A stretch of 64,000 nucleotides of DNA from Acidobacteriota bacterium. Its GTDB lineage: Bacteria; Acidobacteriota; Thermoanaerobaculia; Gp7-AA8. Position numbers and translations under genes: made by a program. Positions within the stretch are counted from its first letter, which is position 1. Every line of letters begins with the position of its first letter. The notes beneath the pieces are model-generated. The model searched no databases. It worked only from the letters and a program-made list of their open reading frames with translations, and had not been told where the DNA came from. Below are positions 10,793 to 63,258 of the stretch, in pieces. The stretch lies in NCBI GenBank assembly GCA_021325515.1, contig JAJPHC010000030.1:78976-142975 (forward strand). The letters run 5' to 3'.

Positions 10793-12090
10793 TACGCCTC
10801 CTGTGCCCGGCGGGCCTCCAGGTATGCCTCGAGAGGTGACCCGGTCGTCAGGGTCATCAACAGGTTCACAGCGAAGAGCGTGACCGCGGTCATTTCGATG
10901 ATCGCAGAAAGTGCGAGCGCGCTCCACGCATGCTCCGAGATGTGCTGATACGCGAGGATCTGTCCGCCAACACGCAGCGTGCAGCCGATGTTGATCAGTC
11001 CCAGCACGACTGCCATGAGTCTCGTGCTCCAGAGCCGCCGCACGTTGAAGAACGCCGGCAGCACGCGCGGCCCGATCGTGAACACCGCCGCCGCGAAGAA
11101 TCCGACCGTGAGCGCGTGGCGCGACGCGCCCGCGTAGCCATTCGGCGCCGGCACGGACGCGGCGACGATCGCCAGCGCGCCTGCGACCACCGACCAGAGA
11201 AACGCGATGCGGATGAACAGCGGCGTCGATTCATGCACACCGCGCAGCTTCGGCTCGCGCTCGCTCCTCTCGAATGTGCGCAGCGCGATTCCAAACATCA
11301 ACGCCGCAATCGTCAGAATGACCGCACCGGCGATCAGCGAGAAGAACGACGTCGCGACGCCCGCGAAGAGTATCGCCATCACCGGGATCAGCATCGTCTT
11401 GCGCGTTTTCTTCAAGCCGAGCAGCGGCGGAAGCCATCGCGAGGCAAAGCCCCAGATGAACGGCACGACGAAGCCCCACGTGATCAGCACCAGATAGCGC
11501 TGGTTGAATGCGGCCGGGAATCGGGGCGCACTGCCGGTGAGCGCGACTCGCAGCGATTCCGCGGCGTTAACGGCGATTGCAACGACCATCGACGCGCCGG
11601 CGCCGCTGATCAGCAGCACCGACTTCCGCCACGAGTCATCCAACGCACGCGGCCGCGCGAGATAGACAGAGACGGCGAAGATGCACACCGCGATCAGCTC
11701 CAGCGCGCCCGACAACGGCAGCAGCACGCGCCATTGCCACGGCCACGTACCGATCGCCCAGCGCATCGCGACGCCCGCGGTCCACAACGGGTACGTCGTC
11801 CATGCCGCGAGGTGCGAGAACGGACTGAGACGCAGGCGCGGAATCGTGTAGTAGCCGATGCCGAGGATGAAGGTGCCGAGCCAGCCGAAAAGCTGGGCAT
11901 GACCGTGGGCCTGCACCCACGCCGCGTCGGCGGCGGACGAGGTGTGTGCGCTCGCGATCTTCAGCAGGGTCATCACGCCGGCGAACGTGCCCGGCAGCAG
12001 CATGAACGCGAGCCCGGTCGCGATGTAGACCTTGAGCATCCGCGAAAGATCAGGATCGTGCGGCTGGCTGAGAGAACGGCAACGCGGCAT
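10792..12090 (-). CDS. nnrS: NnrS-family haem-copper membrane protein (NO-stress associated); start may be the internal ATG at 12039
   Basis: About 12 predicted TM helices with conserved His residues (HGHAQLFGW). It is co-located with a Crp/Fnr regulator and the nar operon. The family assignment comes from memory of the NnrS architecture. Confidence 0.45.
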   Translation of the reverse strand: MPRCRSLSQPHDPDLSRMLKVYIATGLAFMLLPGTFAGVMTLLKIASAHTSSAADAAWVQAHGHAQLFGWLGTFILGIGYYTIPRLRLSPFSHLAAWTTYPLWTAGVAMRWAIGTWPWQWRVLLPLSGALELIAVCIFAVSVYLARPRALDDSWRKSVLLISGAGASMVVAIAVNAAESLRVALTGSAPRFPAAFNQRYLVLITWGFVVPFIWGFASRWLPPLLGLKKTRKTMLIPVMAILFAGVATSFFSLIAGAVILTIAALMFGIALRTFERSEREPKLRGVHESTPLFIRIAFLWSVVAGALAIVAASVPAPNGYAGASRHALTVGFFAAAVFTIGPRVLPAFFNVRRLWSTRLMAVVLGLINIGCTLRVGGQILAYQHISEHAWSALALSAIIEMTAVTLFAVNLLMTLTTGSPLEAYLEARRAQEA

Positions 12091-12137
12091 CGGGCGGGCC
12101 TCCGATGCGTAACGTACCGCGCGCCGTGCAGCGGCGG

Positions 12138-12153
12138 CATGACGGATGTCATG
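12138..12153. promoter_or_regulatory. Candidate Crp/Fnr-family operator: perfect palindrome CATGAC-ggat-GTCATG in the divergent nnrS / cytochrome c-nar promoter region
   Basis: The sequence TGAC-N4-GTCA resembles the FNR/Dnr TTGAT-N4-ATCAA box geometry. It lies ~130 nt upstream of the cytochrome c start and ~50-100 nt upstream of nnrS. Confidence 0.3.
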
Positions 12154-12282
12154 TCGAAGCGGGCAGCAGCAGGATCGGCCACGTTGCTTCCCGCGAAGCC
12201 CTGCCTCTCGCCCGCTTCGTCACATCCCCCCCGGGACCAAAGTCATCGCACCTTGCGTAGCCGATGTCTTCCAATGCGTCAC

Positions 12283-13134
12283 ATGATGTCCAACACCTAT
12301 CGACGCGCTCTCCTGGTGGCGGCGACGGTGACTCTCATCACCGCATCGGCCCGCGCCGCCGACGAAGCGGCCACGTACTTCCGGCAGAACTGCATGAGCT
12401 GCCACACGATCGGAGGCGGCCGTCTCGTCGGCCCTGATCTCAAGGACGTCACGCAACGGCGCGACAAAGGCTGGCTGCAGAAATTCGTCGCCAATCCGAA
12501 GTCGTATCTCGACGGCGGCGATCCCTACGTCGCGAAACTGAAAGAAGACGCACGGGGCGCCGTGATGCCGAACATCGCCGGCATCGACGAAGCCCGAGCG
12601 CTCGCGCTGCTGGAGATGATCGAGCGCGAGTCGAAGCTTCCCAAATCGCAATTCGCCGGTCTCAATATCGGAGACCAGCCATTTACTCCATCCGACATCG
12701 CAAATGGACGGGCCATCATCCTCGGCGAAAAGCATCTGGCCAACGGCGGCCCGGCCTGCGTCTCCTGCCACTCCGTCGACAACATCTCCATCCTCGGCGG
12801 CGGCAAGCTCGCGCCCGATCTGACGAAAGTCTTCGAACGAATGCGCGGCCGGAAGAATCTCGCGTCATGGCTGCAGGCGCCGGCGACGCCGACCATGCGC
12901 CCTCTCTTCGCCAATCAGTCGATGACCAACGACGAGATCACGCAACTCGTCGCTTATCTCGAAACGACCGCACGCAAGCCGCAACAGACCGGCGACACCG
13001 CAACGCTCTCCTTCTTCTTCCTCGGCCTTGGCGGCTGTGTGCTGGGCTTCATCGGCGCCGACACCGTCTGGCGCAAGCGGCTGCGCGGCGTTCGCAAACC
13101 ACTCATTGAAGAAGCTCGGCGAGGTGACCGATGA
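12283..13134 (+). CDS. Dihaem c-type cytochrome with signal peptide and C-terminal TM anchor
   Basis: Two CXXCH motifs (CMSCH, CVSCH) are present. The N-terminus is a signal peptide ([25 protein letters not shown]). There is a C-terminal hydrophobic stretch. Its stop overlaps the narG start (ATGA). The upstream part of the 734-aa track ORF is spurious. Confidence 0.75.
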
Positions 13135-16100
13135 GCATCGGCTGGATTCAGGACGAAGCAACGCCCAACGGGCGCTCCTGGGAAGAGTTCTATAGAAACC
13201 GCTGGCAGCACGACAAGGTCGTCCGCTCGACCCACGGCGTGAATTGCACCGGCTCCTGCACGTGGCAGATCTACGTCAAGAACGGGATCGTCACCTGGGA
13301 GATGCAGGGACTCGATTATCCCGCGCTCGAGAACGGCCTCCCGCCTTATGAGCCGCGCGGCTGCCAGCGCGGCATCTCCTACTCCTGGTACCTCTATTCG
13401 CCATTGCGCGTGAAGTATCCGTACATGCGCGGCGCACTGATCGATCTCTGGAAGAGCGCGCGCAGTGCACACGAGGATCCCGTCGAGGCCTGGGCCTCCA
13501 TCATGGACGACCCCGAAAAGCGCCGGCGCTTTCAGAAAGCGCGCGGCAAAGGGGGATTCCGCCGCGCGTCGTGGGACGACGCGCTGGAATTGATGGCCGC
13601 CGCCAATCTGCACACGATCAGGAAATACGGGCCGGACCGCATCAATGGCTTCTCGCCGATTCCGGCGATGTCGATGATCAGCTACGCATCCGGCGCCCGG
13701 CTGATGCAGCTCATGGGCGGCGTCTCACTGTCGTTCTATGACTGGTATTGCGATCTCCCCAATGCGTCGCCGGAAGTATGGGGCGAACAGACGGACGTTC
13801 AGGAGTCGGCTGACTGGTACAACGCCAAGATGCTCGCCGTCATGGGGTCGAACCTCAACATGACGCGCACGCCCGATTGTCATTTTGCAGCCGAGGCGCG
13901 GCACAACGGTTCGAAGATGTGGGTCTTCGCGCCCGATTTCAATCAGGTCGCGAAATACGCAGACGAGTGGGCCGCCATCAATGCCGGACAGGATGGCGCG
14001 TGGTGGATGGCGGTCAATCACGTCATTCTCAAGGAAGCGCATTACGAGAAACAGACACCGTACTTCATCGATTACGCGAAGAAGTACAGCGACAGTCCTT
14101 ATCTCGTCGAGCTGATCCCAAGTGCAGGACAGGCGTTCAAGGCCGGCCGCCTCCTCCGCGCCAATCGCCTCAAGGCCTACCAGAACGTCGAGCACGGCGA
14201 CTGGAAGTTCCTCATGTGGGACGACACATCCGATCAGCCGAAGATGCCGATGGGCTCCGCGGGCTTTCGCTGGGGGCGTGAAAAGGGCAAGTGGAACCTG
14301 CTGCTCGAGGATGGTCTCTATGGCGACAAGATCGAGCCGGCGCTCACCTTCCTCGGCCGCGGCGACGTCGCGGTCAACGTCGAGTTCGACGATTTCGGCG
14401 CCGATCGCCGCTCGTTCCGCGGCGTGCCCGCGCGGTCCGTCGAGCTTGCGGACGGCTCGCGAGTGCTCGTCGCCACTGTTTATGACCTGCTCATGGCGCA
14501 ATACGGCGTCGACCGCGGTCTGGGCGGCGATTATGCGGGCTCTTATGACGACGACGGGCCGTTCACTCCCGCATGGCAGGAGAAATACACCGGCCTCTCG
14601 CGCGACATGGTCATCAAGTTCGCGCGCGAATGGGCGCGCACGGCGGAACTGACACAGGGGAAGTGCACCGTCATCATCGGCGCCGGCATCAATCACTGGT
14701 ACCACGCCAATCTGATGTACCGCGCGGCGATCCACGCGCTGATCTTCTGCGGCTGCATCGGCGTCAATGGCGGCGGACTCGCCCACTATGTCGGCCAGGA
14801 GAAGCTCGCGCCCGGCGAGCCGTGGGGCGCAGTCGCCTTCGGCAAGGACTGGATCCCCTCCTCGCGCCAACAGAACGCGCCGAGCTGGCACTACGTCCAT
14901 TCCGACCAGTGGCGTTATGAGCGATCGTTCACGGAATACCACCGTCTGCCGCGCGAGGCGAACGACTCGACGAAAGATCACACGATCGATCATCAGGTTC
15001 GCGCCGTCCGGCGTGGCTGGCTCCCCTTCTATCCACAGTTCAACAAGAGCTCGATCGAGATCGTGGCCGAGGCCGAGAAGGCGGGCTGCAGAAGCGATCA
15101 GGAGATCATTGATTACGTCGTCGCGCGCCTGAAATCGAGCGAATTGAAATTCGCGGTGGAAGATCCCGACGCGGAAGAGAACTGGCCGCGCGTTTTCTAC
15201 ATCTGGCGCGGTAACGCACTCATGTCGTCGGCCAAGGGCCACGAATATTTCCTCAAGCATTATCTCGGCACGCACAACAACTCCGTCTCACAGGATCTCG
15301 CCGGAGATTCCGTGAAGGAAGTCGTGTGGCGGGAGCAGGCACCGGAAGGAAAGATGGACCTCATCGTCGATCTCAACTTCCGCATGGACACCTCGGCGCT
15401 CTACTCCGACATCGTTCTGCCCGCCGCCACCTGGTACGAGAAGGCCGACATCAACTCGACCGACATGCACAGCTTCATTCATCCGCTGTCGAAGGCGGTG
15501 CCGCCGTGCTGGGAGTCGAAGAGCGACTGGCAGATCTTCCGCGCGCTGGCAAAGAAGTTCTCGGAGCTTGCGGCGAAGCACTTCCAGGCACCGGTCCGCG
15601 ATCTCGTCGCGACGCCTCTGGCACACGACAGCGCCGCGGAGATCGCACAGAGCGAACCACGTGACTGGTTCCGCGGCGAGTGCGAGGCGATTCCCGGCAA
15701 GACCATGCCCGGCCTCAAGATCGTCACGCGCGATTTTCGCGATGTCTACAAGCAGTACATCTCCTTCGGACCAGAAGCGCGCAAGAACGGACTCGGCGCA
15801 CATGGGACGCACTATGCGATCGACGACTTCTATGACGCCATGCTCACCGAGAAACCGACGGTGTGCTGGAATCACGAAGGCTCGTCGAAGCCCTGCTTCG
15901 CAATCAATGGCACGTCGGGCTGCAAGCGCTATCCCTCGCTCCGTGAAGATGAACATGCCGTCGATTTGATCCTCCACCTCGCCACAGTGACGAACGGCGA
16001 GCTCGCCTGGCGCAGCTACAAGGAGATGGAAGCCAAGGTCGGCCTTCCGCTGACGCACCTCGTCGAGAAACAGCGCGGCGTCAGGGTCTCTTACGCGGAT

Positions 16101-16805
16101 CTGCAATCCAGGCCGCATCGCTTCGTGAATTCGCCGATGTGGTCCGGCCTCATCGAAAACGGCCGCGTCTATTCGCCGTTCACCTACAACGTCGAATGCC
16201 TCGTGCCGTGGCGCACGCTCACCGGCCGCCAGCACCTCTATCTCGATCATCCGACCTACATCGAGTTCGGCGAGCATCTGCCCACATACAAGCCCAAGCC
16301 CCTCCCTGCCGAATATGCCGACCTCCGCTTCGCGGAGCAGAACACGAACGCGAAGATGCTCAATTACCTGACGCCCCACGGCAAGTGGCACATCCACTCG
16401 ACGTACGGCGACAACCAGCGCATGACGACGCTGTCGCGCGGCGTCGAGCCGTTCTGGATGAACGACAGCGATGCCGACGAGCTGGGCATTCAGGACAACG
16501 ACTGGGTGGAAGTCTTCAATGACCACGGCGTCGTGGTGACGAGAGCCGCGGTGTCGGCGCGCATCCCGCGCGGCATCTGCATCCAGTACCACTCGCCGGA
16601 ACGGACGTACTCCGTGCCCAAGTCGCCGCTGCGCGGCAACAAGCGCGCCGGCGGCCACAACTCGCTGACCAGAACACGCCTCAAGCCAAACCTGATGATC
16701 GGCGGCTACGGCCAGTTCACCTTCCACTTCAACTACTGGGGACCGACAGGCTGTAACCGCGACACACATGTACTGGTGAGGAAACTGCCCGAATTGAATT
16801 GGTGA
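13131..16805 (+). CDS. narG: Respiratory nitrate reductase alpha subunit, copy 2 (full length)
   Basis: The N-terminus carries the H/C-x3-C-x3-C Fe-S motif ([12 protein letters not shown]). The protein is 1224 aa with Mo-bisMGD family blocks along its full length. No twin-arginine signal is present. Confidence 0.95.
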
Positions 16806-16823
16806 TGAAAGGGCATGAGACAG

Positions 16824-16903
16824 ATAGGACCTATGGGACCTATGGGACCTATAGGGAGCCACCCATAGGTCCTATAGGTCCCATAAGGTCCCATAAGTCC
16901 CAT
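16824..16903. repeat. 80-bp imperfect palindrome built from tandem octamers (GGACCTAT x3 ... ATAGGTCC-like x4) in the narG2-narH2 spacer
   Basis: Read directly: ataggacctatgggacctatgggacctataggga gccacc cataggtcctataggtcccataaggtcccataagtcccat. It is absent from operon copy 1, where narG and narH overlap. Confidence 0.6.
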
Positions 16904-16925
16904 CGCTGCCACGAGGAGCCAATTA

Positions 16926-18415
16926 TGGATGTCCGATCCCAAATCTCCATGGTCTTCCACCTCGATAAATGCATCGGGTGCCACACCTGCTCCATTGCGT
17001 GCAAGAACATCTGGACCGACCGCAAAGGCACGGAGTACATGTGGTGGAACAACGTCGAGACCAAGCCGGGCACCGGCTATCCGACGCGCTGGGAAGATCA
17101 GGAAAAGTACAGCGGCGGCTGGGAGCTGAAAGGCGGGCGGCTGGAGCTGCGCTCGACGTCGAAGTCGAAGATCGTCTTCAACATCTTTCACAACCCGCAC
17201 ATGCCGTCCATGGACGACTACTACGAGCCATGGACCTATGACTACGGCAATCTCTTCAATGCGCCGGAGGGATGCGACCAGCCGACGGCGAAACCGATCT
17301 CGCTGGTCAACGGCAAGTACCTCGACATCGACGCCGGGCCGAACTGGGACGACGATCTCGGCGGCTCACGCGTCTATGCAGCGAACGATCCCAATCTGGA
17401 AGGGATGAATGAAGAGCAGCGCGCGCAGCTCGCGGCGGTCGAGCGGCTCGTGATGTTCTATTTCCCGCGCATCTGCAATCACTGCCTCAATCCGGCGTGC
17501 GTGGCCGCCTGCCCCTCGGGGGCGATGTACAAGCGCGGCGAGGACGGCATCGTGCTCGTCGATCAGAAGCGCTGCCGTGCCTGGCGCGCCTGTGTGGCCG
17601 CCTGCCCCTACAAGAAAGTCTTCTATAACTGGCAGACAGGCAAGTCGGAAAAGTGCATCCTCTGCTTCCCGCGGCTGGAGACCGGACAGGCGCCGGCGTG
17701 CTTCCACTCCTGCGTCGGCCGCATCCGCTACCTCGGCATCCTGCTCTATGACGCGGAACGGATCGAGGAGATCGCGAAGAGCTCCGACGAGAATCTGATC
17801 GACGCCCATCGCTCGATCATTCTCGATCCGTACGATCCGCAGGTCATCGAAGGCGCGCGTGCCAATGGAATCCACGATTCCGTCATCGAGGCCGCACAGA
17901 AGTCGCCGGTCTATCTCTGGGTGAAGCTCTGGAAGCTCGCCCTGCCTCCGCACATAGAGTTCCGCACACTGCCGATGCTCTTCTACGTTCCGCCGATGTC
18001 TCCGGTGATGGCGCAGAAGGATGGTGACATCATCTCCCACACCAGCGACGATCTCTTCCACGACATCGATCAGGCACGCCTGCCGATGCAGTACCTGGCC
18101 AGGCTGTTCGGCGCCGGGCACGACGGCAAGGTTCGCTACGCACTGCGCAAGCAGAAGGCCGTCCGCGCATACCGGCGCTGGCTAACCGTCGGCGACATCA
18201 GCGAGGCCACGGTCGACCGCATGCTCCGCGAGGCGGATACGACTCGCGACGAAGTCGAGGCCATCTACAGGCTAACGTCTCTCTGCACCTTCGAAGACCG
18301 CTTCGTGATCCCGCCGATGTACCGCGAAGAAGCGATCGAGATGCTGCAGGATCCGATGGAGGCGAAGCAGTCCGCCGGCTTCGGCTTCATGGAAGGCCCG
18401 TCGAGGGGGTTGTAA
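16926..18415 (+). CDS. narH: Respiratory nitrate reductase beta subunit, copy 2
   Basis: N-terminus MDVRSQISMVFHLDKCIGCHTCSIACKN with a GAGGAG RBS 7 nt upstream. The N-terminal extension in the track ORF (YGTYGTY...PIGPIGPI) is a translation of the palindrome, not protein. Confidence 0.92.
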
Positions 18416-36457: not shown

Positions 36458-38172
36458 CACCGTACCCCCTCCGGGAAGGGAATGATGGGATCGACGTCGA
36501 CCGGCAGGTCCTTCGCCGCTTCGAGCGCCCCCTTCAACTCCTCCGGCATCCTGTCGTACTTCGCAAACCACGCCTCGGCCCGCGCGCGGTCGCCCGCGGC
36601 CTCGATCTCCAGCAGCTCTTTCGTCAGCGCGGCGATCGAGTCCGGCATCTTCTCGAGCGCCATTTCATATCGCCCGCTGCTGTTGCGCGTGATCGCGCCC
36701 CGTTCACGCAGGAAGTTGAACTCCATCATCTCTGCGCGGCCATGCGCCTCGCCGACGCCAAAGCGAACCGTGCGGAAGATGCCGGCAACGTACGACGCGT
36801 AGTACTCGTTGAGGCGCTCCTGCGGCAGCGCGCCATGCTCGACGAGCCACTTCAGACCGTACATGCCGGTGATGTCGGCCTTGGCCTCTTCCAGCGCGGA
36901 GTAGATCGGGCCGACGGCGGCGCGAATGTCAACCTGTTGACCATTCTGGCGCGCGAAAGCCGGGCCCAGCCCGTGACAGATCTCGTGCATCATCACCACG
37001 GTCAGCGTCCCCTCGGCCGACGCCATCGCGGCCTGGTCCTGCCGCATCACCCGCTTCGCGACGGGCAAGATCACATCGTTCACGCGCGCATCCATGTAGT
37101 TCTTGAAGAAGATCTTCTTGCTGCCCGCCTGCTGGTGGATCTTCGGATCATTCGGCAGATTGTCGGCAACCGCCTGGTAGCCGTGCCGCAGATCGCCGGC
37201 GCGGAACGGCGTATCCATCACTTCCATCGGCGACGCGTGGCCATGTTTCGACGGCCGGTCCTCGGCGGGCAGCGGAAGCGCGTCCTGAATGTCCGGAACG
37301 TACTTCTGAAACACGGCGAGCTTCCGGCTCTCCGGCTCGTTGCGGATCATCACCGCCGCGCCGTACGAGGTCTTCACGCCGAGGAGGCCGTCGAGGTAGG
37401 TTTCGTAGGGAGCGAAGATGACATCGATCTTCGGGTCTTTCATCTCCGCGACCCACACCAGATCGCTCGGATAGTAGTTGTCGTCGAGCAGCGCCTTGGC
37501 GCGGAGGCGGAGGAACCTGGCGAACGTCCTGTCCGGCGTGGCCGCAGCGGCGTTGCGCAAGTGCGAGGCCGCGCTGACGAGCCACTTGTGGTACTTCACG
37601 TGATAGGGCGTCGTCTTGAGCTTCAGCGGATCGCGGCTCACTAGTTCGACGACGGTGCGTTCGTCGTAGATCGCCTTCTTCTGTTCCGGATGTGCGGCGA
37701 CGTACTTCTCGATGTCCTCGCGGGTGAGCCCTTCGGGATAGAGGCTGCGGCCGGGCGGCATCGGCTCGCTGCCGTAGAACGGGCGATTCTCGTCGATCTG
37801 ATCGTAGTGGCTGCCCTGAATCCAGAGGTAGTGGTGCAGCGCCGGGTTAGCCTTGGCCGTCGCGTGATAGAGCTCGATGTCCGAGGGGGTCGCCTGCCGC
37901 CAGTAGATCTCTTCCAGATCGCGGCTTGCGGCAATCAGCTCCTGAACGGCCTTCCGTTCACCGGCAGAAAGATCGGAGCCGGTGAAGGTCATCTCCACCT
38001 TCTGAAACTTCTGCAGACGTTGTTCGATGTCGGGAGCAACCTTCGACGGATCGTAAGGCGCCGCGGCGAGCAGCAGGACCGCTGATAGGGCGAGAAGGCC
38101 AAATTGAAACTTGAACATTGAAAATTGAAAATTGGCCAGCGACTTCTTCATGCGCGAGATTGTAGTCCGCAC
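36457..38172 (-). CDS. Secreted zinc metallopeptidase, M49 (dipeptidyl-peptidase III)-like with an HEXXH variant
   Basis: An HEICHG motif and a downstream EEAKAD motif match the two DPP3 zinc-ligand blocks (HEXXGH / EECRAE). The signal peptide is partly encoded by heptamer-repeat DNA (FQFSMFKFQF). Confidence 0.5.
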   Translation of the reverse strand: MRTTISRMKKSLANFQFSMFKFQFGLLALSAVLLLAAAPYDPSKVAPDIEQRLQKFQKVEMTFTGSDLSAGERKAVQELIAASRDLEEIYWRQATPSDIELYHATAKANPALHHYLWIQGSHYDQIDENRPFYGSEPMPPGRSLYPEGLTREDIEKYVAAHPEQKKAIYDERTVVELVSRDPLKLKTTPYHVKYHKWLVSAASHLRNAAAATPDRTFARFLRLRAKALLDDNYYPSDLVWVAEMKDPKIDVIFAPYETYLDGLLGVKTSYGAAVMIRNEPESRKLAVFQKYVPDIQDALPLPAEDRPSKHGHASPMEVMDTPFRAGDLRHGYQAVADNLPNDPKIHQQAGSKKIFFKNYMDARVNDVILPVAKRVMRQDQAAMASAEGTLTVVMMHEICHGLGPAFARQNGQQVDIRAAVGPIYSALEEAKADITGMYGLKWLVEHGALPQERLNEYYASYVAGIFRTVRFGVGEAHGRAEMMEFNFLRERGAITRNSSGRYEMALEKMPDSIAALTKELLEIEAAGDRARAEAWFAKYDRMPEELKGALEAAKDLPVDVDPIIPFPEGVR

Positions 38173-38192
38173 ACTGGCATTTTCAATTTTGC

Positions 38193-38320
38193 TCCACGCT
38201 CGTGCTCGCTAGTGCGAAATTGAAAATTGAAAATTGAAAATTGAAAACGAAAGGCGGATCTTGCTTCGTTTTTCAATTTTCAATTTTCAATTTTCAATTT
38301 CGAAGCTCCACGCTCGTGCC
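38193..38320. repeat. MITE-like element. A near-perfect ~38-bp-arm hairpin built from tandem AATTGAA heptamers, flanked by 15-bp direct repeats GCTCCACGCTCGTGC
   Basis: Read directly: gaaattgaaaattgaaaattgaaaattgaaaacgaaag gcggatcttg cttcgtttttcaattttcaattttcaattttcaatttcg. The direct repeats lie at 38193-38207 and 38306-38320. The element overlaps the stop codon of the PAS-GGDEF-EAL gene. Confidence 0.6.
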
Positions 38321-41300
38321 CGCCTGCAGCAGTGTCTCGAAAGCTTCGGCCGACACCGGCCTGCTGATCAGGAAGCCCTGCGCTGCCGTGCACTGTTCGC
38401 GCTGAAGGAACGCGAGCTGCTCCTGCGTCTCCACTCCTTCCGCCACCACGCGCAGCCGCAGCGCCCGCGCCATCGAGATCACGGCCGAGATGATCGCGCC
38501 GTCGCTGGAATCGGCGGAGAGATCGCGCACGAAGTCCTGATCGATCTTCACAGTGTCGATCGGGAAGCGCTTGAGATAGTTCAGCGAGGAGTAGCCGGTG
38601 CCGAAGTCATCAATGGAGATGCGGATGCCCATCTCCTTCAACCGCTTCATGATGGCCAGCGACAGATCGGCGTTCTGCATCGCGGTCGACTCGGTGATCT
38701 CGAGGTCGAGCAGCTCCGGCGGGAAACCGGTCTCTTCGATGACGCGCTCCACCATGCGCGTGAGATCGCGCTGCTGGAACTGGCGCGGCGAGAGGTTCAC
38801 CGCGATGCGCAGCCCGCCGTGCCCGGCGTCATGCCACTGCTTCATCTGCGCGCAGGCGGTGCGCAATACCCACTCCCCGATCGGAATGATGAGCCGCGTC
38901 TCCTCGGCGATGGGGATGAACTCGTCGGGCGGCATCATTCCGAATTCCGGATGGCTCCAGCGGATCAGCGCCTCGGCTCCCGAGATCGTGCCGGTGGCAA
39001 GATCGATCATCGGCTGGTAGTGCACGATGAACTCCTTGCGGTCGAATGCGTGATGCAGGCTGTTCTCGAGCGTCAGCCGCTCCGCCCCTTCCATCACCGT
39101 CACGAACTGGAAATTGTTGCGCCCCATCTCCTTGGCGCGATACATCGCGCGATCGGCGTTCTTGAGGAGCGCTTCCGCATCCTCTCCATCGTCGGGAAAC
39201 AGCGCGATGCCGAGCGAGGTGGTGACGAAGAGCTCGTGGCGCTCGACGACGAACGGCTGGCCGATCGAATCGAGCACTTTCTGCGCGACTCCGATCGCCG
39301 CGCGCCGGTCGGCAACATCGCTGAGCAGCACGGTGAACTCGTCTCCCCCCATCCGCGCGACCGTATCCTCGGCCCGCACGCAGTTGACGAGGCGATCCGC
39401 CACCGCCTGCAGCAGCCCGTCGCCCACCGTGTGGCCGAGTGTGTCGTTCACGAGCTTGAACTGATCGAGATCGAGGAACATGACCGCGGCGACGCGTCCG
39501 CTGCGCCGGGCGCGCGCCAGTGCGACCGTGATGCGGTCGCGGAACAGCAGGCGGTTCGGCAGGCTGGTCAGAGCATCGTGATACGCCTGCCACTCCATCT
39601 TTTCCTGCGCGGTCTTGCGATCGGTGATGTCGATGATCGTCCCTTCGATCACATTCCCATCGAGCACCGCGACGTTCTCGAGAACCCACACGGGAGAGCC
39701 GTCCCGCCGCTTCATCCGCCTCTCGACGTTGGTCAGCGACCCCTGCTCCTGCAGCGCCTGCAAGTACCTCTTCCGGTCATCCGGCTCGAAGTAAAGATCG
39801 AGTGCGGATGCCACGCGCATCAGCTCTTCATTCGAGTCGTAGCCGAAGATGCGCGCCATCGCGTCATTGCATTCGAGCATGCGCCCTTCGACGGTGCTGC
39901 GGAAGACGCCTGCGAGATTGCGCTCGAAAAGGAGCCGGAAGCGCGCCTCGTTCGATTTGCGCTCCGTCACATCGCGCGCGATGCCCTGCACTCCGATGCT
40001 CTTGCCGTCGCGGAACACGAGGCGTGTATTGACCTCGACCGGAATGCGCCGGCCGTCCTTGGCCTGCAGATCGATCTCGTACGATGTGGTGTGGGTTTCG
40101 TCGGCGACCTTGCGCCGGAAATTCGAAGCCGCACGCTCGACGTCATCGGGTGCAATGAACTGTTGGATCGTCATCGAGAGCGCTTCGTCGAGCGTGTAGC
40201 CGGTCGTGCGAAGACCGGCCAGATTCATCGACGTGATGCGTCCCTCGAGGTCGTGCGTGTAGACGATGTCGTTCGCGTTCTCGAAAAGATCGCGGTAGCG
40301 CGTCTCGCTCTGCCGCAGCGAAGCCTCGATCGCTTTTCGTTCAGAGATGTCGCGGGCCACGACCTGAATGGCCGGCTTCCCATCGATCTGAAAGGAGATC
40401 GCTGCGACTTCGACATCGACGGCGGTGCCATCGCGCTTGAGGAACTTCTCTTCGATCAGCGGCACCTCGCGTCCTCGCGACAGCACGCGCAGCCGGCTTC
40501 GCACCGTCGTGCGATAGTCGGGATGCACGAGCGTCATGATGTCGCGGCCCACGAGCTCTTCCGCTGACGCGGCTCCAATCAGCCTCACCGCGGCGGTGTT
40601 GACGAACGTCAGCTTGCCTTCCTGATGCACGAAGATCGCATCAGGGCTCAGCTCCACCACGTTCCGATACCGCTCCTCGCTCTCGCGCAGTCTCTCTTCG
40701 GCGCCCCTCCGCTCGGTGACGTCCTGCGCGATGACGAGCCGCGAGCGCTTTTCACCGAAGAGGAACTCGAACGAGGTGATCTCGACGTCGATGATCTTTC
40801 CGCTGCGGATGCGATGGCGGAAGAGCGCGCGATCGCGCTTCTCCGGCGGATTACGCAATGCCTCTTCCATCTGCGGCAGATCTTCCTGCGGGCGGATGTC
40901 GAGGATCGTCATCTCCATGAATTCTTCGCGGAGGTAGCCGTAGTGTGCGATCGCCGCATCGTTCACTGCGATGAACCGCAAGGTGTCGAAGTCGTAGACC
41001 CACATCGGCAGCGGATTCGCGTCGAAGAGCGTGCGGTAGCGCGTCTCGCTTTCGCGCAGCGCTTCTTCCGCCCGCTTGCGCTCCGTGTAGTCCGTCGCGA
41101 CGTAGATCGCGGCGACGGGAGTGCCATCCGCCTGGCGCACGAATGACGACTGCGCGAGCACGTCGAGCGCCGAGCCGTCCGCCGTCCGCCAGAGCATCGT
41201 CTGCTCCAGCACGCCGGTGCTCTCCAGAATCTGCGCGGTGCTCGTCGCTTCGTTGCGCTGGATGATGTTGCGGATGTGGAGGCCGACCATCGTCGGCGCG

Positions 41301-47536: not shown

Positions 47537-47623
47537 ATGTGTGCAGGACAGGCGCCCTCGCCTGTCAACAGCGGCAGCCCTACCTGAACAAAGCCGACAG
47601 GCGGGGGCGCCTGTCGTACACAC
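47537..47623. repeat. Composite palindromic element containing two GACAGGCG-N4-CGCCTGTC hairpin units in inverted orientation
   Basis: Read directly: tgtgtgcaggacaggcgccctcgcctgtc ...29 nt... gacaggcgggggcgcctgtcgtacacaca. A near-identical element lies at 61014-61080. Confidence 0.55.
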
Positions 47624-47655
47624 AGCGGGCAGATGAGTTGCAAAGCGCCGGAGCA

Positions 47656-50016: not shown

Positions 50017-51549
50017 ATGTCTCAACGCGTTCTTCTGATTGGCCCGCCCTGGGGCGATGTCTACGGCAACTTCAAACATGTGGCGAAAGTCGGCGTCTTC
50101 TACCCGCCGCTCGGCCTCTGCTATCTGAAAAGTCCCCTCGTCGCAGCAGGTTACGACGTCAAAGTCGTCGATGCCGAGGCGTCGGGCTTCTCGATGTCCG
50201 ACATCCTCTCCGTCGTCGGCGACTACAACCCGGACATCATCGGCATTCAGGTCGTCTCGCCTCTGTGGGAAACGGCGAAGAGCATCGCCGCCGCAGTCCG
50301 GGAGCGCTTCCCGAAGATCATCAATGTCTGCGGTGGCCCGCACGTCACGCTGACACATGTCGATGCGATGAAAGAGGCGCCGCAGTTCGACTACGCCGTG
50401 CTCTCCGAATCCGAGGATGGATTTACGGAGCTCGTCGAAGCGATCACGAAGGGCGACTCGAACGATCTCGACAAAGTCGGCGGCATTCTCTATCGCCGCA
50501 ACGGCGAGATCCGCAGGACGCAGCCGCGCACACTGCGCCCCGATGTCGACAATCTCCACTTCCCCGACCGCCGCGATCTCGATCACAGCAAGTACCTCTT
50601 CAGCGTTCCCGGCGCAGGCATCCGCCGCTTCACCACGATCATCACGTCGCGCGGCTGCCCCTACAACTGCACGTTCTGCACGGAGCCGCTGATGTACGGC
50701 CGCACGACGCGCTTCCGCTCCGCGCGGAACGTCGTCGATGAAGTGCAGGACTTTCACGACCGGCACAACATCAATCACTTCATCTTCGTCGACGACACGC
50801 TCACCACGCGCAAAGAGCGGATCATGGAGATGTGCTCCCTTCTGCGCGAGCGCAAGCTCGACATCACGTGGGAGGGGTGGACGCACGTCAACACCGTCGA
50901 TCAGGATCTGCTGCACGAAATGCATGCGGCGGGACTGCGCCGCCTTTCGTTCGGCATCGAGTCCGGCAACGCGGAAGTGCTGCAGTCTCTCAAGAAGAAC
51001 TCGACGCTGCCGCGCATTCGCGAGGCCTATCGCTGGGCCAAGAACGCCGGCATCGAGACCCGCGGCTCCGTCATCCTCGGCCTCCCCGGCGACACGCGGA
51101 AGTCGGCGCAGGAGACGATCGACTTCGTCGTCGGCCTCAAGGAATGCGATCACGCTTACTTCAACATCGCGATGCCGTATCCCGGCACCGAGATCCGCCG
51201 CCAGGCGCTCGCAGGTGAAGCAGGCGTTCGCCTGCTGACCGAGGAGTATTCGGAGCTGCGGAGACAGGGGCAGAAGGTCGTGATGGAGGTCAATGACCTC
51301 GACACGAAGGCGCTGCTCCAACTGCAGCGCCAGGCCTATCTCCGTTTCTGGCTGACACCGCGGCGCATCTGGTACAACGTCGTCCGCTCCGGCTTCAAGG
51401 CAGCGCTGCAGAATGGATGGGCGTTCTTCCGCTCATTCGTGATGCCGACGCGCAACGGCCGCATCCGCTTCATCTCCGAGATCACCGATATTTACGAGGC
51501 GGTGTCGGGCCGTGCGTGGAGCGCGCAGGAGAAGGATAAGGCGGCGTAG
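50017..51549 (+). CDS. B12-binding-domain radical SAM protein (class B radical SAM)
   Basis: An N-terminal cobalamin-binding-like domain (VLLIGPP...GLCYLKSPLVAAGYDVKVVD). Radical SAM Cys triad CPYNCTFC. The protein is 510 aa. Confidence 0.8.
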   Translation: MSQRVLLIGPPWGDVYGNFKHVAKVGVFYPPLGLCYLKSPLVAAGYDVKVVDAEASGFSMSDILSVVGDYNPDIIGIQVVSPLWETAKSIAAAVRERFPKIINVCGGPHVTLTHVDAMKEAPQFDYAVLSESEDGFTELVEAITKGDSNDLDKVGGILYRRNGEIRRTQPRTLRPDVDNLHFPDRRDLDHSKYLFSVPGAGIRRFTTIITSRGCPYNCTFCTEPLMYGRTTRFRSARNVVDEVQDFHDRHNINHFIFVDDTLTTRKERIMEMCSLLRERKLDITWEGWTHVNTVDQDLLHEMHAAGLRRLSFGIESGNAEVLQSLKKNSTLPRIREAYRWAKNAGIETRGSVILGLPGDTRKSAQETIDFVVGLKECDHAYFNIAMPYPGTEIRRQALAGEAGVRLLTEEYSELRRQGQKVVMEVNDLDTKALLQLQRQAYLRFWLTPRRIWYNVVRSGFKAALQNGWAFFRSFVMPTRNGRIRFISEITDIYEAVSGRAWSAQEKDKAA

Positions 51550-51626: not shown

Positions 51627-51689
51627 GCCTAGCGCCTAGCGCCTAGCGCCTAGCGCCCAGCGCCCAGCGCCTAGCGCCCAGCGCCCAGA
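51627..51689. repeat. Perfect tandem heptanucleotide microsatellite (GCCYAGC)9
   Basis: gcctagc x4, gcccagc x2, gcctagc, gcccagc, gcccaga. In total 63 nt between convergent genes. Confidence 0.7.
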
Positions 51690-58844: not shown

Positions 58845-58864
58845 GATGACGGAGACTCGAAGAG

Positions 58865-58941
58865 TCGAAATTGAAAATTGAAAATTGAAAATTGAAAATT
58901 CGCTCCGTCCCCCATTTTCAATTTTCAATTTCCAATTTTCA
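58865..58941. repeat. Heptamer (GAAAATT)n palindromic hairpin, second copy of the 38216-38302 element family, filling the divergent GT2/GT2 intergenic region
   Basis: Read directly: tcgaaattgaaaattgaaaattgaaaat tcgctccgtccccc attttcaattttcaatttccaattttcaatttcga. Confidence 0.6.
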
Positions 58942-58968
58942 ATTTCGATTCGCGAAGAACTGAGAAAA

Positions 58969-61013: not shown

Positions 61014-61080
61014 TGTGCGTGTAGGACAGGCGCCCTCGCCTGTCGGTCCCATGGACAGGCGAGGGCGCCTGTCCTACACG
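61014..61080. repeat. Composite palindromic element with two GACAGGCG-N4-CGCCTGTC units (copy of the 47537-47623 family), immediately 3' of the ychF stop
   Basis: Read directly: gtgtgcgtgtaggacaggcgccctcgcctgtc ggtcccatg gacaggcgagggcgcctgtcctacacg. Confidence 0.55.
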
Positions 61081-63142: not shown

Positions 63143-63253
63143 CCCGTTAAGTTGGTTTTCGGGGGTCACACCTGGAAAATCAATTTAACTCGGCACCGGT
63201 GACCGCCGTTAAGTTGATTTTCCAGGTGTGACCCCCGAAAACCAACTTAACGG
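63143..63253. repeat. 111-bp perfect-arm inverted repeat (47-bp arms, one mismatch; 17-nt loop); each arm is itself internally palindromic
   Basis: Left arm cccgttaagttggttttcgggggtcacacctggaaaatcaatttaac. Loop tcggcaccggtgaccgc. Right arm cgttaagttgattttccaggtgtgacccccgaaaaccaacttaacggg. It fills the divergent glk / XRE-regulator intergenic region. Confidence 0.65.
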
Positions 63254-63258
63254 GTTGG

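Follow-up and report, generated by a model that had tools for sequence, protein, structure and literature searches.

The palindrome that separates narG2 from narH2 in the 64,000-nucleotide stretch of acidobacterial DNA analysed here (hereafter the window) looks, from its sequence, like one copy of a dispersed family of nonamer-built repeats that is multi-copy in related genomes and present once in the window. Our preferred explanation, held with moderate confidence, is that a copy of this self-complementary intergenic repeat was inserted 3′ of the narG2 stop codon, and that it is most likely a selfish or structural hairpin tolerated within the operon.

The flanking genes, encoding the alpha and beta subunits of nitrate reductase, were identified by NCBIfam models (Table 1). 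The C-terminus of NarG2, ...RKLPELNW*, is as long as that of copy 1, and the true start of NarH2 is the ATG at 16925, given that the alignment to the family model starts at residue 1 and that nearly all of the 120 best homologs are 496 amino acids long. NarH1 and NarH2 are 60% identical. The difference in gene spacing that was first remarked on is real: narG and narH of copy 1 overlap in ATGGTGA (2399–2405), whereas in copy 2 they are separated by 119 nt (16806–16924). Within this spacer the palindrome is confirmed at 16824–16903 with mirrored arms, as described in the original prediction, but it is built of nonamers and not, as proposed there, of octamers. Thus, Tandem Repeats Finder returns period 9 for both the left array (16827–16857, 3.3 copies, 95% matches) and the right array (16862–16903, 4.6 copies, 85% matches), with 3–4 left units of the form ATRGGAC+NN facing 4–5 mirrored right units across GGGAGCCACCC; the octamer GGACCTAT is the constant portion of the nonamer ATRGGACCT. 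The element is extended outward by a degenerate fourth left unit, ATGAGACAG (16815–16823), and by a terminal ATCGCTGC (16902–16909). Its arms are complementary (24-nt arms, 92%, 6-nt gap), also in slipped registers, and the copy is slightly decayed, with 1-nt indels in two right-arm units and the degenerate outer unit just mentioned. A pattern of three nonamer units, allowing up to three mismatches, occurs at a single site in the window, with 0.00 sites expected by chance.

Folding of the spacer as RNA, the check that had been suggested for this locus, yields a stable hairpin with the narH2 Shine-Dalgarno sequence outside its stem. The RNA from 16790 to 16940 folds at −74.8 kcal/mol, compared to −43.3 ± 4.4 kcal/mol for shuffled sequences (z = −7.1, none of 200 shuffles being as good), and the minus strand of the element gives an equally stable fold. 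The core stem comprises 34 pairs (16819–16899) including one G-U, in agreement with the ~34 bp first estimated, and GGG/CCC pairing in the apex leaves the loop AGCCA. A scan for U-tract terminators across 16000–18000 found no terminator-like sites, the stem being followed by CGCTGCCACGAGG. At the Rfam gathering score a tRNA is the sole match in the window, and the narG2–narH2 locus gives only sub-threshold matches to generic hairpins. An integron attC site was dropped as a candidate, since the core sites differ and the setting is no cassette array, as was a CRISPR array, since spacers are absent; the resemblance of the apex CTATAGGGAG to a T7-type promoter is accounted for by the unit sequence.

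Table 1. Coordinates of the narG2–narH2 junction and of two further mirrored elements in the window.
Feature	Position	Strand	Basis or remarks
narG2 (nitrate reductase alpha subunit)	13131–16805	+	TIGR01580, 1521 bits; stop TGA 16803–16805
Sole open frame across spacer	16805–16924	+	ATG overlapping narG2 stop (UGAUG); in phase with narH2; would add 40 residues
Inserted 104-nt element: TGAAAGGGC, left array, apex, right array, ATCGCTGC	16806–16909	.	Breaks in ortholog alignments; L113 and L109 spacers
Left arm, four 9-nt units: ATGAGACAG, ATAGGACCT, ATGGGACCT, ATGGGACCT	16815–16850	+	Sequence and repeat finding
Apex: ATAGGGAGCCACCC	16851–16864	+	Fold; motif GGAGCC(C)ACCC common to JBAQWH01 copies
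Right arm: ATAGGTCCT, ATAGGTCCC, ATAAGGTCCC (10 nt), ATAAGTCCC, ATCGCTGC	16865–16909	+	Sequence, repeats, arm complementarity
narH2 Shine-Dalgarno GAGGAG	16913–16918	+	Outside main stem; ~50% unpaired in ensemble
narH2 (beta subunit)	16925–18415	+	TIGR01660, 655 bits from residue 1; true start ATG 16925; narJ next
(GAAAATT)4, loop, (AATTTTC)4	38215–38302	.	On stop codon of PAS/GGDEF/EAL gene
Second mirrored GAAAATT element	58862–58951	.	Same design class

That the element is an insertion follows from comparison with orthologous operons. The closest NarH (89% identical) is found in the Thermoanaerobaculia MAG JADGOA01, at a locus (L109) that is syntenic with the window across 12 kb at 77–82% nucleotide identity and whose narG–narH spacer is 16 nt long and free of the element. 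NarH similarity, synteny and shared repeat families are the basis on which the window is assigned to this lineage. Spacers of 5–25 nt are found in 43 of the 72 orthologous junctions measured. Alignments of orthologous loci with the window end at about 16803–16812 and restart at about 16911–16925, and the spacer of locus L113, TGA-CACGAGGAGCC..ATG, equals the window sequence immediately past the element, a match that places the insertion at 16806–16909 (104 nt), so that it begins right behind the stop codon of narG2. Read in this way, the aligned loci show a 104-nt insertion 3′ of the narG2 stop into what would have been a spacer of about 15 nt, with Shine-Dalgarno sequence and ATG left intact. 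A small mobile insertion, one of several possibilities raised in the original prediction, is supported by these element-free orthologous operons and by the homologous copies dispersed in related genomes. Upstream of narG2, the window has a 734-amino acid multi-haem c-type cytochrome ORF (10930–13134) that overlaps the narG2 start by 4 nt; in L109 a 279-amino acid cytochrome c gene takes its place.

Strong but unrelated hairpins, each at −43 kcal/mol or below, lie at the same narG–narH position in at least 7 of the 72 junctions (window, L110/L111, L112, L119, L138, L150 and L161). L110/L111, whose NarH is 87% identical, have (GGTTGRC)4, loop, (GYCAACC)4 with a fold of −75 kcal/mol, L150 has mirrored GTCATTN heptamers, L161 mirrored CGNCGAC-type units and L112 a plain palindrome. 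At the narH–narJ junction, in contrast, where a 4-nt overlap is usual, an insertion is found in 1 of 60 loci. Such a distribution, with hairpins arising at narG–narH in several lineages independently and the Shine-Dalgarno sequence just outside the hairpin in each case, could point to a stem selected for regulation, one that sets the narG:narHJI ratio (by way of RNase III, by shielding against 3′ exonucleases or by terminating in part) or that keeps translational coupling, and the REP325 precedent discussed below would fit. We nevertheless consider selection of this kind unlikely: most orthologous operons, the closest relative included, are hairpin-free, the elements are generic repeats that occur at many unrelated junctions, the NarG and NarH subunits are required in equal amounts (1:1), and the narH–narJ overlap leaves no room for insertion and so explains the contrast between the two junctions without function. 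The rarity of narH–narJ insertions fits a picture in which elements persist solely at junctions that have a spacer. A function specific to nar is likewise unlikely for the narG2–narH2 hairpin, because a U-tract terminator is absent and most orthologous operons do without a hairpin.

Other features were observed in these clusters as well. The narG–narH spacers of nine loci (L152, L133, L144, L159, L162, L181, L182, L164 and L180) hold one-armed heptamer direct repeats (TAACGAC in six copies; GAGAACT/NAACTGA), whose ends lie 0–4 nt before the narH ATG; a recognisable Shine-Dalgarno sequence is absent from these spacers. The 432-nt spacer of L158, a metagenome contig, contains a small ORF that looks hemerythrin-like, to judge by sequence motifs. 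L110 (6657–6745) and L111 (6140–6228) have a second mirrored array, (CCTCTGTG)3...(CACAGAGA)3, which sits in the same cluster between a molybdopterin-oxidoreductase gene and an NrfD/ActC-like gene; the corresponding junction is 7 nt long in the window (between 22976 and 22984), and in L109 the two genes overlap.

Related copies of the narG2–narH2 element were found by scanning one genome per species for two exact nonamer units, which returned at least 108 loci. Among the matches listed, at least 41 loci come from nine Thermoanaerobaculia MAGs, several of which have 8 or more, and the nonamer design is present at no fewer than 40 places in these nine MAGs. Part of the cross-phylum signal is collagen-like coding sequence (L010, L020, L034, L043 and L072). 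A nonamer scan of viral contigs gave no evidence of a phage vector, its 48 matches being almost all collagen-like G-X-Y coding repeats (GGACCTATG = G-P-M), and the heptamer pattern gave 22 raw matches to viral contigs. The scan loci and the window together hold 57 clusters of at least three units in 379 kb, 40 of them mirrored as (ATRGGACNN)n...(NNGTCCYAT)n, 2 in the opposite order and 15 one-armed. Across 499 units, position 1 is A in 84% and position 2 is T in 83%, position 3 is A or G, and positions 8–9 are nearly free; about half of all units read ATAGGAC, and GGAC served as search anchor, so that its conservation is not independent evidence. The copies share an outer-to-inner unit order of GA, CT, CT, (AG/GA), (AA/GG) as well as the ends GGGGAACG...CGTTCCCC, and the window copy aligns with those of MAG JBAQWH01, apical GGAGCC(C)ACCC included. 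Fixed polarity together with shared order, ends and apex indicates common descent and spread, and not independent local origins. The original prediction would have been undone by an element with no other genomic copies; copies are found in relatives, while the window itself holds a single one. Native arms fold at −1.49 kcal/nt and chimeric arms at −1.45 kcal/nt (p = 0.13), a comparison uninformative about covariation because all copies share the unit order.

Several individual copies deserve mention. An element occupies the same orthologous site in two different MAGs (L092, 53–128, and L101, 7314–7415), with differing unit composition and loop and with complementary arms in both; judged from these two sequences, the pair shows long-term retention with unit turnover. 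In L078 (1770–2256) the loop of a nonamer element is interrupted by ~380 nt that include another long palindrome, a nested insertion. In L107 (3158–3250) a nonamer element separates an upstream gene from a gene for a 4Fe-4S (Fer4_11) subunit, which starts 3 nt past it and is followed by an NrfD gene; as at narG|narH, the element immediately precedes the gene for an Fe-S subunit within a respiratory operon.

With respect to neighbouring genes, 24 mirrored arrays lie between convergent, 30 between co-directional and 6 between divergent genes, numbers that are approximate as they derive from crude, GC3-based gene calls. The gap from stop codon to array is often 0–10 nt, the stop codon falls inside the first unit in about 17 cases, and between several convergent pairs the mirrored element takes up practically all of the intergenic DNA. 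As at narG|narH, many co-directional arrays are followed by a start codon after only 3–30 nt, which puts them inside operons and argues against efficient termination. When 71 elements were examined for target-site duplications, the direct repeats on their flanks did not exceed controls in length (mean 7.5 versus 7.5). Two of the 71 are exceptions, with flank duplications of 17–19 nt (the 38.2-kb element of the window, and L002 2042–2128 with 17 nt), and the other 69 have none. A Pfam screen of ten ORFs located between neighbouring elements revealed no transposase, five having metabolic or respiratory domains and five no Pfam match. Both negative results weigh against our preferred reading, in which spread of the nonamer family by transposition is inferred.

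The nonamer is one of many units arranged in this way. A scan for arrays mirrored within 90 nt gave 57, whose units, 7–10 nt long, are of at least 20 types: heptamers (GAAAACC, GAAAACG, GAAAATT, CGACAAC, TGACAAC, CAGCAAC, CGCCAAC, GAACGCA and others), the octamers CACAGAGA and GAGTCTTC, nonamers and one decamer, with arms usually of 4–5 units, or 30–40 nt. The kinship in design with heptamer elements of the window that had been pointed out at the start is thereby borne out, in that mirrored arrays of 7–10-nt units, GAAAATT included, recur in the lineage and different ones occur at narG–narH. The GAAAATT heptamer family is also present in MAG DASPHC01 (L031 and L091). Density in Thermoanaerobaculia is roughly one mirrored array per 10–20 kb, and the design is also seen in loci of Blastocatellia, Gemmataceae (Planctomycetota), Sumerlaeia (Sumerlaeota), and Prevotella and Alistipes (Bacteroidota). 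We put forward tentatively, as a possibility rather less probable than not, that mirrored short-unit arrays make up one general class of intergenic hairpin elements, comprising many families and governed by the rules seen for the Xanthomonas GGGAATC pairs described below; the hairpin itself would be the feature common to the class, because most units cannot form G-quadruplexes. If true, this would imply either an undescribed way of building and spreading hairpins (by a dedicated enzyme, or by slippage with arm-to-arm template switching) or a shared role as two-way 3′-end elements between genes. Some contigs also start or end in or beside such arrays, for example L011, L026, L035, L042 and L111.

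As to the remaining repeats of the window, the 38.2-kb GAAAATT element is flanked by a 19-nt duplication of the 3′ end of the PAS/GGDEF/EAL gene (38191–38209 and 38305–38323, one mismatch), and the native end of this gene past the duplicate reads CAAAATTGAAAATG, which is unit-like. Close by, a one-armed AATTTTC-like array of ~5 units (38101–38134, minus strand) lies within codons 6–17 of an ORF starting at ATG 38151, in which it encodes the signal-peptide-like MKKSLANFQFSMFKFQFGLLALSAVLLLAAA. A one-armed GCCYAGC array (8.4 copies, 51627–51688) lies just after a gene ending at 51549. Three long palindromes (47538–47624, 61018–61080 and 63143–63254) are plain and not unit-built; two share GTAGGACAGGCGCCCTCGCCTGTC and are thereby REP-like, with a GTAG head, and the third has 47-nt arms with 98% complementarity.

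The unit statistics bear on a further explanation, in which the arrays are periodic sites for a sequence-specific protein, binding single-stranded RNA or DNA or duplex, and the hairpin is secondary. A 7-nt core conserved over 499 units with two positions free would suit such sites, as would the core-plus-variable pattern of other families (GAAAA+NN, GNCAAC+N, and GGGANTN in Xanthomonas), the typical arm length of 4–5 units, and the one-armed heptamer arrays just upstream of start codons in other contigs, as in MacGregor 2015. We find this reading improbable, as no candidate protein is known, the mirrored motifs are buried in a very stable stem, and the many cores that coexist in one genome would demand as many binding proteins.

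The arrays might also have arisen in place, through polymerase slippage expanding a local 9-mer and intrastrand template switching that copied it to the other arm, with no transposition involved. Unit numbers do vary between copies and orthologous sites, L092 versus L101 being an example, one architecture is common to many different units, the native gene end by the 38.2-kb heptamer element reads AAAATTGAAAAT, again unit-like, and slippage has been suggested for heptamers by Mrazek, as cited in later papers. Local origin is nonetheless very improbable for the element at hand, for its empty site, TGA-CACGAGGAGCC, has nothing like ATRGGAC, and dozens of unrelated loci have the unit in common, along with its polarity and order, the ends and the apical motif, an outcome not to be expected of independent local origins. 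Hardly credible, finally, is a coding role, whether as translational restart at the UGAUG AUG giving NarH2 a 40-residue N-terminal extension or as a MIRU-like coupling ORF: the sole open frame across the spacer, from ATG 16805, is in phase with narH2, which we treat as chance, roughly one in three, and is probably unused because the orthologs are 496 amino acids long, while the NarH2 alignment begins at its own Met, ATG 16925 has a good Shine-Dalgarno sequence in front of it, and other junction elements have stop codons in that frame. An open frame that spans the element can, for its part, mislead gene callers.

We return to the insertion of a dispersed repeat, the reading that we prefer, and to its counterparts among known systems; a literature search of open-access text found no papers on the repeat strings themselves. 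The closest precedent is the GGGAATC repeat of Xanthomonas campestris and X. citri (PMC4692102, PLoS One 2015), in which GGGANTN units, mostly four per array, form 70–75 inverted pairs per genome in convergent orientation. About 90% of these arrays are intergenic; they follow the preceding ORF at a mean distance of 28 nt, are under-represented between divergent genes and vary in length between species; their function is unknown and the authors interpreted them as G-quadruplexes (PMC4692102). The resemblance to the nonamer family, which we regard as a further instance of this unexplained type, is extensive: both have a conserved core with variable positions (GGGANTN versus ATRGGACNN) and mostly about four units per array, both pair two nearby arrays convergently on opposite strands such that a stem-loop can form, both are dispersed in hundreds, ~90% intergenic, placed shortly after the preceding ORF and under-represented where genes diverge, and in both a given site can have different numbers of units in different relatives. 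G-quadruplex potential is the one structural rule of the Xanthomonas repeats that the nonamer family does not follow. The two differ in unit length (7 nt there, 9 nt here) and in phylum, and the present case has many unit families per genome and a copy inside an operon. G-tracts are inconsistent here, the window copy having three GGG runs, half of the units reading ATAGGAC and GAAAATT having none, so that the G-quadruplex reading cannot apply to these arrays; this suggests that G-quadruplexes are not what the mirrored-array class has in common.

The REP/BIME and REPIN elements of E. coli and Pseudomonas are likewise extragenic hairpins in many copies, located behind stop codons, in convergent gene pairs and within operons. 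REP/BIME elements have a GTAG or CGTC head and a cognate gene for a RAYT (REP-associated tyrosine transposase) flanked by repeats, and they can stabilise the mRNA upstream while attenuating transcription downstream in part; REPINs are long hairpins made from two inverted copies. The narG2–narH2 element, in contrast, has no GTAG/CGTC head, and in place of a 20–40-nt imperfect palindrome it is a hairpin of ~100 nt composed of 9-nt units with the ends GGGCATGAGAC... and GGGGAACGAT.... None of the ten ORFs screened between neighbouring elements is a RAYT or other transposase. With MITE hairpins (Correia elements of Neisseria, ERIC of enterobacteria) it shares a size of ~100 nt, self-complementarity, a position within transcription units and folding in mRNA. 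Target-site duplications of fixed length and a parent insertion sequence are characteristic of MITEs, whereas the 71 elements examined here lack a regular target-site duplication. Mycobacterial interspersed repetitive units (MIRU) are 46–101 bp units and not hairpins. They too are intercistronic in operons with an ORF overlapping the flanking gene ends; here, however, the unit is 9 nt and the overlapping ORF runs on into narH2 instead of stopping where that gene begins.

The TAACTGA heptamer direct repeats that MacGregor (2015) described upstream of start codons in Beggiatoaceae, with one inverted case (PMC4679880), and long simple-sequence repeats (Mrazek 2007, as cited in that paper) are similarly intergenic arrays of 5–11-nt units with a sporadic phylogeny. 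The TAACTGA repeats are one-armed and precede start codons, whereas the narG2–narH2 element is a mirrored pair forming a hairpin; the one-armed NAACTGA/TAACGAC arrays before the narH ATG in other contigs do resemble them. Palindromic microsatellite-like repeats in Fusarium mitochondria are optional between close species, which argues for mobility (PMC7218506); the present elements share this optional presence, and the likeness to those organellar repeats is by description only.

On the insertion reading, the element would fold in the narGHJI transcript into a predicted hairpin of 34–41 bp, having landed at what appears to be the one place in a short intercistronic spacer where insertion is permitted. 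The hairpin would bring the narG2 stop codon and the Shine-Dalgarno and start region back together, and the element may be tolerated because it folds away and leaves stop, Shine-Dalgarno and start close to one another. By analogy with REP/BIME and the Xanthomonas arrays it is most likely selfish or merely structural. Any function would probably go no further than blocking 3′ exonucleases or weakly attenuating transcription, to the advantage of narG over narHJI. REP325, within the yjdMN operon, is both attenuator and stabiliser, and by this analogy the element could plausibly alter mRNA decay or read-through to a modest extent. Copies change through gain and loss of units, with the arms staying complementary.

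For the nar operon the outcome is deflationary, in that the palindrome would be a generic repeat insertion and not a control device of nitrate reductase. The narG|narH junction, with its empty state and at least three independent fillings, would make a natural test bed for the arrival of such elements and for their effects on polycistronic mRNA. The phenomenon known from Xanthomonas would be extended to another phylum, with units that are unable to form G-quadruplexes, which narrows the possible explanations to the hairpin or a periodic core motif.
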